Assembly: GCA_041637935.1 (NCBI GenBank)
Contig: JBFKXV010000001.1
Span: forward strand, 1 to 27,978
From: Burkholderiales bacterium
Lineage (GTDB): Bacteria > Pseudomonadota > Gammaproteobacteria > Burkholderiales > Eutrophovitaceae
Direction: 5' to 3'
Length of the DNA: 27,978 nucleotides
Shown here piece by piece: positions 1-5,825 of this stretch. A model generated the notes under the pieces. It saw only the letters and a program-made list of their open reading frames with translations. It was not told where the DNA came from and searched no databases. A program made the translations under genes and the position numbers. Position 1 is the first letter of the stretch. Each line of letters starts with the position of its first letter.

Positions 1-25
1 AAATCACCAACCAACGCCAACTCTG

Positions 26-243
26 TCCCCTTCTGAATCGCCGAGTAACGCAGAAGCGACAGGGGGTTTCGGCGAGGACTGTTTGAGCCCGCGCGTGACG
101 CATGCGCGGGCGAGTTCCGCAGCCGCCTGTCGTTTCGAGTAACACAGGGCACCCCGAAGGGGCGGTTCAGTGGGGCGGCCTTCTTTGGCCTACCTTTCTT
201 GGCCGCGCAAGAAAGGTAGGTGGCCGCCGGGCTACCCCCGGCC
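26..243 (+). repeat. Structured ~220-bp intergenic repeat (MITE/REP-like), copy 1
   Basis: Shares GAGGACTGTTYGA, AGTTCCGCAG and GCCGGGCTACCC motifs with copies at 2191-2457 (inverted) and 2514-2728. Stems at 53-63/126-136 and a perfect 13-bp hairpin at 189-220. Confidence 0.85.
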
Positions 244-312
244 TGCCGGTGCAAGCGACGGGCAGATCCGGTGGTGACTGGTTTTCGAACCACAGCCTAC
301 GAGAAGAAACGG

Positions 313-423
313 TTAATAGCCTTTCGCGCGATCAACTACACCAACAGGTTGTTCACCCCGTCCCATACGTTTTACGTTTTCGATCACTTGCGCTTCGGCC
401 TCTGCGGCAATCGTCACGCCGGC
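313..423 (-). pseudogene. Detached duplicate of the last 36 codons plus stop of ghrA
   Basis: Translates AGVTIAAEAEAQVIENVKRMGRGEQPVGVVDRAKGY*. 101/111 nt identical to 2795-2905 by manual alignment. No start codon, and homology ends abruptly at 423. Confidence 0.9.
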
Positions 424-589
424 GGGATGCTCTACGCACACTTCAACAACGAGGCAACACGCCGCGTACTGGTATGCCGGAATGCGGTAAGCAATTAGAA
501 ATAATTAACCGCGGTTGCTGTGCCGGTGGGCCTCGCGTAATCTACGGTTGCGAGCCCAGACATCCTCCCTAAGAACAGTGAGGCGCACG

Positions 590-2098
590 ATGAAACGACG
601 CACGTTTCTCCATACTGGAATTGCGGCGACAGCGGCCCTCGCCATCCCCTACAGGCGATCGCTGGCGCTCCTTTACAAGGAAGCACCTCAGACTCCACCC
701 GACGTTGCGGCTATCACGGGCGCCGGCAAGGAGATCACGCTGAGGGGGAAGGACATCGCCGAGCTGAGTGCGCGGTTGCGTGGACGTTTGCTCATCGCCG
801 GTGACGCCGGCTATGAGAAAGCTCGACACGTCCTCAACCCGTCCTTCGACAAACACCCCGCGCTCATCGCCCAGGTCACGGGTACGGCGGATACCCGAGC
901 GGCGGTGGAGTTCGCCCGGGACCACGACAATCTGTTGCTCGCGGTCAAGTGCGGCGGCCACAGTTTCTCGGGTAAGTCGACCTGCGACGGCGGCATGATG
1001 ATCGACCTGTCCCCCTTCCAGAATGTGCGCGTCGATCCGAGGGCTCGGCGGGCCTGGGTGACAGGGGGCAGCTTGCTGGGTCTGCTGGATCACGAATCGA
1101 TGGCCTACGGCCTGGTGACGACAATGGGAACCGTATCGCACACCGGTGTCGGCGGCCTGGTCACCGGGGGCGGAACTGGCCGGGTTGGGCGGCGGTTCGG
1201 TCTTTCCATCGACAGCCTGAAGTCGGTGGATATCGTCACGGCAGACGGCCAGTTGCGTCACGCGGACGTACACGAGAACCCGGATCTGTTCTGGGGCGTG
1301 CGCGGCGGTGGCGGGAACTTCGGTATCGTCACCGATTTCGAGTTCCAACTACATCCGATGCAACGCCGGGTCGTGGGTGGCGAGATGATGTTCCCGATCG
1401 ATCGGGCGCAGGACGTGCTGAGCCTCTATGCCGAGTACGGTCCTAACGCGCCGGACGAGCTCGACATGATCTTCTCGATGATCCAGCCGCCGGGAGGCGC
1501 ACCGGGCGTGACCGGCATCGCAGTGTGCTACTCGGGCTCCGAGAAACACGCGGATCGGGTCCTCGCCCCCATCCGTCGATTGGGGACACCGCTGGTCGAT
1601 AACTTCCGGGCTATGGATTACGTCGCCCTGCAGCGGTCCGGCGACACCGACGATCCGCGGGCCCGCGCTGCGTATTTGAAGAGTGGATTCTTACCGGATG
1701 TGCCGGCGGACCTGGTCTCGGCAGTCGTCGACGGCTTCGAAGGAGATTCCAGCCGCACGACGATCGTCGTCTACCAGCAGCTCGGAGGCGCGATCAGTCA
1801 AGTTCCGAACGATGCCACCGCGTTCTCGCACCGAGACGCGGCCGGCAACATGCTGGTGATAACGAACTGGCCATTCGGCGATGACCCGACACAGCACATC
1901 GCGTGGACGAGGAGGTACTGGGCGACTCTCGAACCGTTCACCCAAGGGTTCTATACCAACGACCTGGGACCCGATCAGACGGCGGCGCAGATCAACCGTA
2001 ATTACCGGGAGAACTACCCGCGGTTGGTACGCATCAAGAACAAGTACGACCCTGGCAATTTATTCCGCTTGAACGCGAACGTGCAGCCGACGGTGTGA
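590..2098 (+). CDS. Tat-exported FAD-binding oxidoreductase, BBE/vanillyl-alcohol oxidase superfamily
   Basis: ATG at 590 after GAGG gives MKRRTFL (twin-arginine signal). KCGGHS covalent-FAD His motif, FWGVRGGGGNFGIVT, and C-terminal BBE motif RLVRIKNKYDPGNLF. ORF track start 515 is probably too early. Confidence 0.88.
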   Translation: MKRRTFLHTGIAATAALAIPYRRSLALLYKEAPQTPPDVAAITGAGKEITLRGKDIAELSARLRGRLLIAGDAGYEKARHVLNPSFDKHPALIAQVTGTADTRAAVEFARDHDNLLLAVKCGGHSFSGKSTCDGGMMIDLSPFQNVRVDPRARRAWVTGGSLLGLLDHESMAYGLVTTMGTVSHTGVGGLVTGGGTGRVGRRFGLSIDSLKSVDIVTADGQLRHADVHENPDLFWGVRGGGGNFGIVTDFEFQLHPMQRRVVGGEMMFPIDRAQDVLSLYAEYGPNAPDELDMIFSMIQPPGGAPGVTGIAVCYSGSEKHADRVLAPIRRLGTPLVDNFRAMDYVALQRSGDTDDPRARAAYLKSGFLPDVPADLVSAVVDGFEGDSSRTTIVVYQQLGGAISQVPNDATAFSHRDAAGNMLVITNWPFGDDPTQHIAWTRRYWATLEPFTQGFYTNDLGPDQTAAQINRNYRENYPRLVRIKNKYDPGNLFRLNANVQPTV

Positions 2099-2190
2099 AT
2101 CCGCTGCGGGACGAGCTGATCAATAAGGGTGAAGTTGGGCACTGAGGCGTGTGTTGCGCAGGTTAGGATGTCTTTAACGTCTGTAGGCTG

Positions 2191-2457
2191 AGGGTAGCCC
2201 GGCAGCTACTTACCTTTAGTTCCGACATAACCTGGCTGAAGCCAGGTGAGTCTCCACTGAAACTGCGTTTTCTTGCGCGGCCAACAAAGGTAAGCCAAAC
2301 AAGGCCGCCCCACTGATCCGTCCCTCCGGGATACCCTGCGCTACTCGAAGCGACAGGCGGCTGCGGAACTCGTCCGCGCGAGAACCATGCGCGGACTCAA
2401 ACAGTCCTCGCCGACTACCCCAGTCGCCTCTGTGTTGCTCGGCGGTTCAGAAGGGGA
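2191..2457 (-). repeat. Structured intergenic repeat, copy 2 (inverted, interrupted by a ~51-bp insert)
   Basis: Reverse complement aligns closely with 26-243. Extra sequence at about 2218-2268 splits the 3' hairpin. Confidence 0.85.
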
Positions 2458-2513
2458 GCAACGCTTTGACGGTTCAAGTATGTTCACCAACCCCAGCACG
2501 CCGGGTTTTGAAC

Positions 2514-2728
2514 TCCCCTTATGCCGCGCCGAGCAGTCCGATGTGCACGCGGGGTTTCGCCGAGGACTGTTCGAAGGCCGCGCGCGTTTTTTGCGCGGAC
2601 AAGTTCCGCAGGCGCCGCGTGGACATCGGGCAGCGCAGGAACAAAGCGGCATTGGGGTGCCCTTCTCTTTGGTTACTTTCTCTTGGGCAAGCAAGAGAAA
2701 GTAACTAGCCGCCGGGCTACCCCCGGCC
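2514..2728 (+). repeat. Structured intergenic repeat, copy 3 (more diverged subfamily)
   Basis: Same motif order as copy 1. Stem 2538-2552/2615-2629 and a perfect 14-bp hairpin GTTACTTTCTCTTG-ggcaag-CAAGAGAAAGTAAC at 2672-2705. Confidence 0.85.
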
Positions 2729-2794
2729 TACCGATGTAAGCAACAGGCAGGCAGGGCGGTGAACTCGTGAACCACAGCGTTCGGGAAAGAACGG

Positions 2795-3721
2795 TTAATA
2801 GCCCTTCGCTCGATCAACCACGCCAACAGGTTGCTCACCGCGTTCCATACGTTTGACGTTTTCGATCACCTGCGCTTCGGCCTCAGCGGCAATCGTCACG
2901 CCGGCAATGTGCGGTGTCACTATGACCTTTGGGTGCGACCATAGCCGGCTCGATTGCGGCAAGGGTTCATCGTTAAAGACATCGAGCATGGCGCCGCCGA
3001 TCTGGCCCGAATCAAGTGCGTCCAAAAGGTCCTCTTCGACGAGGTGACCACCGCGCCCGATATTGACCACGTAGCTGCCGCGCGGCATAGCGTCAAACGT
3101 GCGCCTGCCCAGAATACTCGTAGTAAGCGGCGTCAGCGGCAAAACGTTGATAACAACCCGGCAGTTCGAAAGGAAGGCGTCCAATCCGGATTCACCAGCG
3201 AAGCTCTCGACGCCTTCAATTGACGTGCCAGAACGGCTCCAGCCACAGGTGCGATATCCCAGTGCCACCAGATGCTTGAGAATGAGGCCCCCAATGACTC
3301 CCGCTCCCATCACGCCGACTGACCACCCGCTTGCCGCCAGCGGCGTGAGTTGATTCCAGATGCGTTGTTGCTGCTGCCGTTCGTAGTCGCGCATCCGCCG
3401 GTGAAAACGCAGCACGGCATAAACCGCGTACTCGGCCATTTGCGGAGCGAGGCCAGCGTCAAGAAGCCGCACCACGGGAACCTGCGGCGTCGTCGTATCA
3501 GCAAGCAGCGCATCGACGCCGGCACCCAACGCCAACACGGCTCGCAATTTTGGAAGCGTTTTCAGTAGTCCCGGAGGCGGATTCCAAACCAGCGCGTAGC
3601 GAACCGAATCGATGTCTTCTACGTCCGGCCACACCTCGAACGGCATTTCCGGAAGCGCGGCTGCAAAAGCCCGCCGCCATGGCCGCGGATCATCGGTCTT
3701 ACTGTAGAACAGGACGCTCAT
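2795..3721 (-). CDS. ghrA: Glyoxylate/hydroxypyruvate reductase A (D-2-hydroxyacid dehydrogenase)
   Basis: ALGAGVD, GAGVIG Rossmann motif, NIGRG, DVFNDEP and TPHIAG catalytic motifs; 308 aa. Confidence 0.88.
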   Translation of the reverse strand: MSVLFYSKTDDPRPWRRAFAAALPEMPFEVWPDVEDIDSVRYALVWNPPPGLLKTLPKLRAVLALGAGVDALLADTTTPQVPVVRLLDAGLAPQMAEYAVYAVLRFHRRMRDYERQQQQRIWNQLTPLAASGWSVGVMGAGVIGGLILKHLVALGYRTCGWSRSGTSIEGVESFAGESGLDAFLSNCRVVINVLPLTPLTTSILGRRTFDAMPRGSYVVNIGRGGHLVEEDLLDALDSGQIGGAMLDVFNDEPLPQSSRLWSHPKVIVTPHIAGVTIAAEAEAQVIENVKRMERGEQPVGVVDRAKGY

Positions 3722-3870
3722 GGGCAGTACAAATAAAAAGCTATCGCGCGACTCGTTTGCTGTGTCGCGTGTTCCTCTTCCTCTCGGTCACACGACTCTG
3801 TCAAATCCGGCAGCTCCTTGCACTCGGGTCACCCGTTACGCTTTTCCGATCAAACTGCCAGTGCTCAGTA

Positions 3871-3900
3871 TCAATAGATTCGTGATCAATAGAATCGTGA
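3871..3900. repeat. 15-bp direct tandem repeat x2 (TCAATAGAWTCGTGA)
   Basis: 3871-3885 and 3886-3900 differ at one base; lies immediately after the panC stop. Confidence 0.75.
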
Positions 3901-3902
3901 AA

Positions 3903-4736
3903 TCAAGGTGCCTCCACTTCGAGGTTGTCAATCAGCCGCGTCGAGCCGAGCGTCGCGGCGCCGAGAATCACCAACTCGGAGTCGTCAGGTGACGGCCTTT
4001 TCAAGCCACGCTGAGTTCGAACGACGACGTAATCGACAGTCCAACCGTGCCGGGCAAGCAACGCGCCGGCTGCATACTCCATCGCGACAAACTTGCGGTC
4101 GCCCTCGCGGATTGCATCGCGGACCTGCAATATGGCTTCACGCAGCCTCGGCGCTTCAATTCTTTCTTGTTGCGACAAATAGCGATTACGCGATGACAGC
4201 GCCAGCCCGTCCTCAAACCGAACCGTCTCTGCCGGAATAATGCGAATCGGCAGGCTAAGCTGATCAACCATGTGGCGAATGATGGCAAGCTGTTGGTAGT
4301 CCTTCTTGCCAAACACCGCCGACTGCGGTTGCACCATGTTGAACAGTTTCGTGACCACAGTGCAAACGCCGCGAAAATGCCCGGGCCGAAAACGCCCCTC
4401 GAGCTTTTTGGCAACCTTCGGCGGGTCAATAAAGTACGCCTGTGGCTCCGGGTACATCTGCTGCTCGTCAGGGTGGAAAACGATGCTATTGCCGGCGGCC
4501 TCGAGCTTGGCGCAATCCTCCTCGAAAGTGCGGGGATAGCGTTCGAAATCTTCACCCTGTTGAAACTGGAGCCGATTGACAAAAATCGTCGTCACCGTGA
4601 CCGGTGCAGTCTGGACGGCGATTTTGACCAGGCTCAAATGACCGTCGTGTATGTTGCCCATGGTCGGCACACAACACACGTCGGGCTCGCTGGCCAAGCG
4701 TGCGCGCAGTTCATCAATGGTGCCTATGATGTCCAT
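3903..4736 (-). CDS. panC: Pantoate--beta-alanine ligase
   Basis: PTMGNIHDGH, RPGHFRGV, FGKKDYQQ and ALSSRN motifs. Confidence 0.97.
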   Translation of the reverse strand: MDIIGTIDELRARLASEPDVCCVPTMGNIHDGHLSLVKIAVQTAPVTVTTIFVNRLQFQQGEDFERYPRTFEEDCAKLEAAGNSIVFHPDEQQMYPEPQAYFIDPPKVAKKLEGRFRPGHFRGVCTVVTKLFNMVQPQSAVFGKKDYQQLAIIRHMVDQLSLPIRIIPAETVRFEDGLALSSRNRYLSQQERIEAPRLREAILQVRDAIREGDRKFVAMEYAAGALLARHGWTVDYVVVRTQRGLKRPSPDDSELVILGAATLGSTRLIDNLEVEAP

Positions 4737-4926
4737 ATTCTCCCTTGACCAGTCTTCTCCCGGCCGGTGCGATGCATCGCGCCGCCAGGTGCACTTCCTA
4801 TGTTTGTTCTGCCCTGGTTCGCGCCAGGATCTTTACCGTACTTTCATAAGCCATTAGTCGCAAGCGGGGATTTCCACGATGGCAATAAATTCTGACTAAA
4901 TGCACTTTACGCTGGCCAAACATCAG

Positions 4927-5721
4927 TTAGAAACTATGTTCCGGTCCGGGAAAGGTCCCCGCCTTGACTTCATTGACATAGGTGCTGACGGCAGCGGAAA
5001 TCGAATCGGCGCCTTGCATGAAATTCTTGACAAAACGGGGTTTGCGCCCCTGATAGATATCCAGCATGTCGTACAGGTTCAGGATCTGGCCGCTACAGTG
5101 AGGACCGGCACCGATCCCCATAACGGGAATATCAAGCGACGCGGTCACTTGTTTTCCGACATCGGCCGGTACCAGTTCCAACACCATCAGACTCGCACCG
5201 GCCTGCTGCAATGCTTTGCCGGAATTGACCAGAGCGCGCGCCGCGTCATCGGTTTTGCCCTGTACTTTGAAGCCGCCGAGCGCGTGAACCGATTGCGGCG
5301 TCAGTCCGATATGGCCACACACAGGAATGCCGCGGCTGACCAGAAAGTCGACTGTTTCGGCCATAACCTCGCCGCCTTCGAGCTTGACCATGTGCGCACC
5401 GGCGCTCATCAAGCGCGCCGAGTTCTCGAACGCCTGCTGCGGGCTTTGCTGATAACTCCCGAACGGCAAGTCGCCAAGGACGAGTGCGCGTTGCGTCGTG
5501 CGGGCAACGCAACGCGTATGGTAGACCATGTCGTCCATCGTCACGGGAAGCGTCGAGTCGTGGCCTTGCACCACCATGCCGAGCGAATCTCCAATGAGAA
5601 AAACGTCAATGCCGGCAGCATCGAGCAACGCAGCGAAGCTGGCGTCGGTGCAGGTCAGCATCGTGATCGCATCTTTCTCATCACGCATTTTTTGTAGTGT
5701 GCTAGTGGTAACTTTTGCCAT
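4927..5721 (-). CDS. panB: 3-methyl-2-oxobutanoate hydroxymethyltransferase
   Basis: [25 protein letters not shown] and GHIGLTPQS motifs. Start taken as MAKVT at 5721; 5748 is the alternative. Confidence 0.96.
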
Positions 5722-5825
5722 AATGAAAATTCCGAAAAGTAGCACCATTTGAACAGATGCTCGGCCCCCTCACGCGCCCCGATATGAAGCGCCCGTCAAT
5801 TGTTGTGCGTGCGAAATCCGCCTCA

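Follow-up and report, generated by a model that had tools for sequence, protein, structure and literature searches.

A displaced ghrA 3′ end beside a foreign oxidase gene: an insertion scar with no linked integrase in a mixed-strain Burkholderiales genome

In the genome of a Burkholderiales bacterium of the family Eutrophovitaceae, assembled from a metagenome, a foreign gene for an FAD-linked oxidase lies between an intact ghrA-like gene and a displaced, 5′-truncated version of the 3′ end of that gene. The stretch analysed, hereafter the window, comprises the 27,978 nt of contig JBFKXV010000001.1 of assembly GCA_041637935.1, which is contig C1 of the 589 contigs of this metagenome-assembled genome (MAG, G000; 87% complete), and its position 1 is a contig end. 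It was compared with seven genomes of the same genus, in six of which the ghrA locus is assembled (G001, G002, G003, G004, G005 and G007). The arrangement is a real and well preserved insertion scar of an already described kind, and we consider it moderately likely that it arose when a related lineage contributed some 2.5 kb of DNA by homology-anchored insertion with no recombinase involved, an insertion that would have displaced the ghrA 3′ end and would have been followed by an exchange of the flank.

The working end of the intact gene (2795-2905, minus strand; tail B) was taken as the reference for two further versions, an orphan at 313-423, also on the minus strand (tail A), and a third on contig C205 of the same MAG. 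Tails A and B both consist of 36 codons plus the stop codon and align with no gap, with 101 of 111 positions identical; nine of the 10 substitutions are synonymous changes at third positions and the remaining one exchanges Gly and Glu at tail codon 20, in agreement with the count given in an earlier note on this DNA. Synonymous sites make up about 25% of the tail, and at least nine synonymous changes in 10 have a probability of P = 3e-5. The dS between the two tails is 0.44 with a dN/dS of 0.028; dN/dS rises to 0.08-0.09 in the comparisons with the C205 tail, and dS ranges from 0.44 to 0.8 across the tail pairs. A ratio of about 0.03 supports the view, already expressed in that note, that both 3′ ends evolved in functional ghrA alleles of different lineages. 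GCCGGC, immediately behind the catalytic PHI motif, marks the exact end of the homology, as had been read before: the intact gene continues there into ...CCGCACATT (Pro-His-Ile), and the remnant side continues as the upstream region of the oxidase gene. On the other side of the tails, the 26-nt spacer behind the ghrA stop codon is present twice (287-312, minus strand, and 2769-2794; 21/26 identical), and a structured repeat of about 220 nt stands behind each tail (63-423 against 2551-2905, 77% identity over 368 columns). Spacer and repeat had both been described as duplicated, which is correct for the spacer and not for the repeat, the left copy (repA) not being a copy of the right one (repB), as detailed below.

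The gene to which tail B belongs (2795-3721, minus strand) is full length and encodes a D-2-hydroxyacid dehydrogenase (Pfam 2-Hacid_dh_C). Among the NCBIfam families GhrA (NF012013 equivalog) scores best and is matched over its full length, but the 305.8 bits are below the curated cut-off of 403, so that ‘ghrA-like’ is the safe name. A second ghrA paralogue was considered as the source of the fragment and rejected, since the MAG contains a single full-length match. Tail A is part of a 42-codon open frame (313-441, minus strand) whose GTG start lies within the upstream region of the oxidase gene and which is retained in C205 with a Pro to Ser change just upstream of the joint; this frame is probably fortuitous.

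Over the same 111 nt the C205 tail shares 92 positions with tail B and 90 with tail A. When the relatives are included, tail B matches the G007 tail at 96 positions and tail A at 92, and the C205 tail matches that of G001 at 91 and that of G007 at 83. The agreement between tails A and C205 is unevenly distributed, with the 48 nt next to the junction (376-423) identical and only 42 of the 63 distal positions (313-375) matching. At residues that are invariant in seven functional genes, tail A has the replacement E20G and the C205 tail has G22D and G27C, whereas tail B has none; the replacements in the two orphans fit relaxed selection.

The order of the neighbouring genes gives the ancestral state of the locus. 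In all six relatives ghrA is preceded by panB and panC, collinear with the window, in which the two genes (3903-5748, minus strand; Pfam matches) are the conserved upstream neighbours used as synteny reference and could possibly have acted as a homologous anchor. Beyond ghrA and zero to two repeats, the DNA of these relatives matches the genes for an AMP-binding (fadD-like) protein and a Liv transporter found on C205. The ancestral order, as indicated by this comparison, is Liv, fadD (forward), spacer, ghrA (reverse), panC, panB. In the MAG, one path leads along C205 from fadD through a spacer of 273 nt to a ghrA tail and the start of the oxidase gene, and the other along C1 from the oxidase gene through an inverted repeat (repC) and repB to intact ghrA. 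Taken together, the two paths place the oxidase segment exactly between two ancestral neighbours, with the 5′-truncated ghrA end on the fadD side, in a composite locus formed by fadD, old tail, promoter and oxidase, repC, repB and intact ghrA. This architecture is taken as real because a chimeric join is not expected to recreate ancestral synteny. The oxidase gene is present at the ghrA locus in none of the six relatives, in which fadD adjoins ghrA, and none of the seven genomes of the genus has a second ghrA tail (one match each, against three in the MAG). The alignment of the loci of the relatives, which the earlier note had asked for, excludes that they share the duplication together with the oxidase.

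In C205 (locus L233), inverted units of about 34 nt (CTCACCGCGGAGCACGCAGAGGACGCCGAGGAAA and its complement) lie downstream of the AMP-binding gene at 4773-4806 and 4965-4998, with about 160 nt between them. The fadD-ghrA spacer contains similar units in G001 and G007 too, and in G001 the segment between them seems to have the opposite orientation.

The relation between C1 and C205 depends on the composition of the MAG. The end of C205 matches window positions 315-656 over 342 nt at 93% identity; it has its own version of the tail, the same GCCGGC/GG junction, a promoter region with five differences from C1 within 424-557 and, finally, 99 nt identical to C1 at 558-656. Such convergence has the signature of two paths merging in the assembly graph. 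Contigs of the MAG overlap end to end in 116 cases (200 nt or more; median identity 97.3%), and so many imperfect overlaps show that it is a mixture of closely related strains. The other end of C1 (27478-27978) provides one of the 116, its 501 nt being 94.4% identical to the start of contig C266. The two haplotypes differ at 5 of 182 positions in 376-557, a typical strain divergence, and at 21 of 63 in 313-375; to the left of 375 they differ structurally, with the repeat in C1 and the inverted units, which resemble repetitive extragenic palindromic (REP) elements, in C205. On this evidence, positions 1-557 of the window represent one of two strain haplotypes (haplotype 2) of a mixed-strain MAG. 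The earlier caveat that two strains might be involved was correct as far as the mixture is concerned, but the finding is not removed by it, C205 showing a displaced tail independently.

A mixed assembly also raises the question of a false join, in which positions 1-375 would come from the ordinary ghrA locus of a co-occurring strain or species and would have been fused to the oxidase path across 376-425, where 50 bases are identical. A contig end within a multi-copy repeat forms the start of the window, the MAG is strain-mixed and contigs shorter than 1.5 kb are absent from the bin, all of which would suit such an artefact, but the shared 50 nt are shorter than the 99-nt overlap at the contig end, so that a false join would need a small k and would have to survive, and the promoter haplotype of C1, distinct from that of C205 at five sites, needs a left flank of its own. 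We regard this chimera as very improbable; even if it were true, the joint between tail and oxidase in C205 would stand, with synteny placing C205 next to ghrA.

A different arrangement of the same contigs, to which we assign a low probability, is a tandem array of two units on a single chromosome, produced by two successive insertions, in the order fadD, C205 tail, oxidase, ..., repA, tail A, oxidase, repC, repB, ghrA. Both left flanks feed the same oxidase path in the assembly, and arrays of orphan ends are known at rhs and type VI secretion system (T6SS) loci (PMC5361080). Against this array, strain mixture is the default in a MAG with so many imperfect end overlaps, C1 is unbroken at the 3′ end of the oxidase gene, and the sequence to the left of repA resembles the inter-repeat spacer of G004 and not the spacer on the repC side of C1. 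Neither a tandem array nor a chimera of 1-375 would do away with the displaced-tail architecture, for which C205 is an independent witness.

The structured repeats do not qualify as cargo by which an imported element could be recognised. Three copies lie at the locus: repA (27-285, plus strand; repeat proper 27-244) directly after the displaced tail, repC (repeat proper 2269-2457, inverted) in the segment that also holds the spacer (2157-2483, minus strand), and repB (repeat proper 2551-2750) in the segment that ends with the 26-nt spacer directly downstream of intact ghrA (2484-2794, plus strand). The repC segment is collinear with the ghrA loci of G007, G003 and G005, the inverted member of a native pair being 84-88% identical to the copies found at the same place in the relatives, and repB is 88-97% identical to the repeat at that position in G005, G007 and G003. 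For repA the identity is 90-91% with the copies of other species (G003, G004 and G007), falls to 86% with the inverted repC and is 71-77% with repB. The family has between 1 and 19 matches per genome in the genus (9 in G007, 19 in G002, 7 in G006 and 6 in G003), folds strongly (z = –5.07) and is not a described RNA family, since an Rfam scan of positions 1-4000 of the window gave no match at E ≤ 1. The inverted pair lies between ghrA and fadD in G007, G003 and G005, and is flipped as a unit in G004, whereas G001 and G002 have no member of the family at this place. The three repeats are therefore independent members of a dispersed, genus-wide family that occupy the same relative position and are native to the ghrA-fadD spacer, not cargo. 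Two side features of the family may be recorded here, namely an insertion of 52 nt in repC (2217-2268), absent from the G007, G003 and G005 copies and from repA, and a conservation between species of up to 97%, against about 75% for neighbouring coding DNA.

The order of the repeats also bears on the origin of the left flank. The first 26 positions of the window, a short spacer at the contig start (1-26), are homologous to the inter-repeat spacer downstream of ghrA in G004 (AATCACCAACCAAC against AATCACCGACCATC), and together with repA they match the flipped arrangement of that genome. The subtype of repA and the G004-type order argue that the ghrA downstream region on the left comes from a differently arranged allele and is not a copy of the one on the right. 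This speaks against an origin in place, in which the oxidase gene would have entered the spacer, a tandem duplication with a deletion would have produced the second tail and one of the two initially identical copies would have been overwritten by the allele of a relative, which would account for the synonymous differences: a local duplication would not be expected to leave a left copy with a G004-like repeat arrangement, or with none, as in C205, and at least three events would be needed instead of one or two. Allele exchange as such seems to take place at this locus. The tails of G007 and G001 are identical at only 82 of 111 positions, less alike than their gene bodies (85.7%), from which the ghrA 3′ end and its spacer appear to have been exchanged between lineages, and the haplotype mosaic of the MAG shows one such exchange. 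On the whole we find duplication in place followed by replacement unlikely.

The cargo is a BBE-type FAD-linked oxidase of 502 amino acids (590-2098, plus strand; Pfam FAD_binding_4 and BBE), with an N-terminal twin-arginine signal (KRRTFL) as read from its sequence. It is preceded by an upstream region with the presumed promoter (424-589, plus strand), conserved from 450 to 589 with a cassette that G007 carries at another locus, and followed by 58 nt (2099-2156) with no homology to G007 at either locus. The insert borders on tail A at 423/424, and its right junction is near 2157, where, at CAGGTTAGG, the sequence again becomes homologous to the fadD-repC spacer of G007. A possible 6-nt target duplication at the outer borders (CTGGTT/CAGGTT) was dropped, as it is too short and ancestral homology of the spacer also explains it. 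One of the seven relatives, G007, has an orthologue of the oxidase, at 90% amino acid identity and 89% nucleotide identity over window positions 450-2094, higher than the 79-86% or so at which core genes of the MAG and G007 agree. Beyond the genus, the most similar proteins are encoded by Gemmatimonadota MAGs (67-72% amino acid identity) and by one metagenome contig (80%, the best among metagenome relatives), which includes only 66 nt of upstream DNA and is uninformative on the tail; in a plasmid collection, no relative exceeded 45%. This patchy occurrence and a G+C content of 62-66%, against 52-60% in the flanks, indicate that the oxidase is foreign to the locus and was acquired horizontally. 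Furthermore, none of the 160 related oxidase loci that were fetched (80 of them from GTDB genomes) has a ghrA homologue beside the oxidase gene, which argues that the tail is not an old neighbour of the oxidase.

In G007 the oxidase cassette (locus L017, 8323-10281) and ghrA are 1 Mb apart. The cassette has tRNA-Asn on one side and a GFA gene, followed by map and glnD, on the other, and the corresponding site of G001 is empty. The flanks of this cassette hold only tRNA-Asn, an aminotransferase gene, the GFA gene, map and glnD, with no ghrA tail, no integrase and no gene-tail duplication. Between the terminator of the tRNA gene and the cassette, some 130 nt read as an open frame on the opposite strand. 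In the MAG, neither C1 nor C205 contains an integrase, and between the repeats no sizeable open reading frame other than that of the oxidase has a family match; the three tyrosine recombinases of the MAG (PF00589 matches) are on contigs C72, C7 and C329. The earlier statement that no integrase lies between the repeats is in this way confirmed and extended, none being linked to the cassette in either genome.

These observations bear directly on the possibility of a small integrase-less element that integrates site-specifically, with a core near GCCGGC and a recombinase acting in trans, as in the analogy with icd and phages or in the satellite that had been proposed earlier. Its architecture would be that of icd ... 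e14 ... icdC (PMC13626634), one exact junction is common to two haplotypes, and the three tails agree completely over their first 20 nt, although the last point is not diagnostic of a core because the same stretch is conserved among species. However, both contigs lack an integrase, the ghrA site is occupied in no other genome, being empty and with no extra tails in all six relatives, and the G007 cassette stands beside tRNA-Asn with neither tail nor integrase; moreover, the exact junction motif has no match in JGI metagenome contigs. A single event followed by exchange of the flank explains the shared junction more simply, positions 376-557 being at strain-level divergence. No positive evidence speaks for phage-like or satellite-like integration, which we hold to be very unlikely.

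The sequences show the architecture, the empty sites of the relatives, the foreign nature of the oxidase, the haplotype mosaic and tails that arose as alleles under selection; the direction of the event, with the tail of intact ghrA as the incoming one, and the mode of recombination are what we infer. The donor would be a relative in which the oxidase gene had simply been added to the intergenic DNA beyond ghrA and its repeats, comparable to the G007 cassette beside tRNA-Asn. The incoming DNA, about 2.5 kb, would comprise a ghrA 3′ end, repB, repC and the oxidase gene with its own promoter. A fragment extending from inside ghrA to just past the oxidase promoter would recombine homologously within the resident ghrA and, on its other side, would be sealed by a single illegitimate joint at GCCGGC, just after the codon of the catalytic His. 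The joint GCCGGC/GG is sharp and common to both haplotypes. The outcome would be a ghrA gene kept intact by the incoming tail, with the resident tail left as an orphan of 36 codons on the fadD side of the oxidase gene, and no dedicated recombinase would take part. Later, a second homologous exchange from the fadD side, ending within the orphan tail at about 375, would generate the two haplotypes (C205 and C1 1-557); it could reach no further than the orphan tail, the last stretch homologous to a normal ghrA locus. The same product would result if the fragment were circularised and entered by a single crossover, and the linear and the circular route cannot be separated here. The latter corresponds to the Campbell-type insertion-duplication, in which circular DNA with a 3′-terminal gene fragment integrates, a standard outcome with suicide plasmids. 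The single crossover yields an intact gene, the inserted DNA and a 5′-truncated copy in exactly the order seen here, with the differences that neither a replicon nor a circle is known at this locus and that the circle would have to derive from a chromosomal fragment of a relative.

Several points weigh against this insertion scheme. The MAG is only 87% complete, and how the haplotypes are phased and how many oxidase genes there are can be read only provisionally from the assembly. We found no donor genome with the oxidase gene simply inserted downstream of ghrA, and microhomology at the illegitimate joint is not scorable without a donor sequence. One exact junction in two haplotypes is also compatible with a site-specific process. 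Finally, the tree of the tails (108 nt) has no resolution and cannot assign a native tail to the ghrA body, sliding windows in which the body is compared with G007 and G001 give only a weak hint as to which tail matches it, and the affinities of the tails (B and A nearer to G007, C205 nearer to G001) are based on few sites.

Three known systems resemble the locus in different respects. The first is insertion with long target duplication, in which integrase-free inserts are flanked by target repeats of 46-423 bp (PMC2853133; Nobusato et al., 2000; Furuta, Abe and Kobayashi, 2010) and to which the circular route would correspond. The common traits are a small foreign unit with no mobility genes and direct repeats that align to a single-copy sequence of the empty site, often the 3′ end of a gene. 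At the present locus the foreign insert is below 20 kb and absent from the site of the relatives, the direct repeats exceed 30 bp, other mobile-element genes are lacking, and each 111-nt tail (in haplotype 2 together with spacer and repeat) finds its counterpart in the one ghrA end that G007 and G001 possess. The differences concern the cargo, which is restriction-modification in those cases and an oxidase here, and the repeats, near-identical there (e.g., 417/423) and here 83-91% identical (101/111 between A and B, 92/111 between the C205 tail and B), with almost only synonymous differences. Divergence of this kind argues that the second copy came from another lineage and not from copying of the target.

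The second system is homology-facilitated illegitimate recombination (HFIR), proposed for the orphan 3′ ends of rhs, contact-dependent inhibition (CDI) and Vibrio cholerae T6SS effector-immunity arrays (PMC5361080; Jackson et al., 2009, cited there). In these arrays, homology in the constant part of a gene serves as anchor, a new 3′ end enters with cargo and the old end remains downstream as a 5′-truncated orphan, with no recombinase. The linear route proposed above would be an instance of HFIR, and the same order, that is intact gene, cargo and 5′-truncated orphan 3′ end in one orientation, is found here. The toxin tips of those genes differ and the cargo confers immunity, whereas in our case both tips encode the same peptide of a housekeeping dehydrogenase and the cargo is a BBE/FAD oxidase.

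The third is e14, or phage 21, in the icd gene of Escherichia coli, with the architecture icd ... e14 ... icdC (PMC13626634), in which a substitute 3′ end borne by the element keeps the gene intact and the displaced end is a pseudogene with mostly synonymous differences. The substitute end and the displaced old end have their counterparts at ghrA, but a linked recombinase and recurrent use of the site do not: e14 is a prophage of 15 kb with its own integrase and SOS-inducible excision, compared with 2.5 kb, one cargo gene, no integrase and no sign of site specificity. The initial interpretation of the locus as a gene-restoring integration therefore holds in part, in that a foreign oxidase segment does lie between an orphan end and intact ghrA, and is unsupported in the phage-like site specificity that was attached to it.

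A more far-reaching interpretation is that the unit of about 2.5 kb (promoter, oxidase gene, repeat pair and ghrA tail) is a self-perpetuating mobile cassette independent of any recombinase. In that event the flanking tails would let the RecA of the host loop out a circle that could re-enter the ghrA gene of other strains by single crossover, with ghrA always restored, and the haplotypes, or a tandem pair, would be repeated insertions at the same joint. We consider such a cassette decidedly improbable.

Two further repeat families, distinct from the one at ghrA, were encountered in the MAG. The first, an unrelated dispersed repeat of about 260 nt, has at least 10 copies that are 86-94% identical (e.g., C57:5400-5663, C255:1855-2117 and C113:2198-2462); the other, of about 267 nt, occurs on C101, C175 and C208.

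Taken alone, the locus represents ordinary recombination biology, and its value is that of a further integrase-free scar, with a duplicated gene end and synonymous differences. In mixed-strain MAGs caution is needed, as scars of displaced ends fall exactly at contig breaks. The insertion offers a clean natural example of the entry of one accessory gene into a conserved core neighbourhood with neither a mobile-element gene nor damage to the flanking gene. The orphan tail is a datable scar and would record that the incoming DNA arrived via a related lineage with the ghrA 3′ end as homology anchor, in a region where the spacer beside the ghrA tail seems to keep being swapped between strains.

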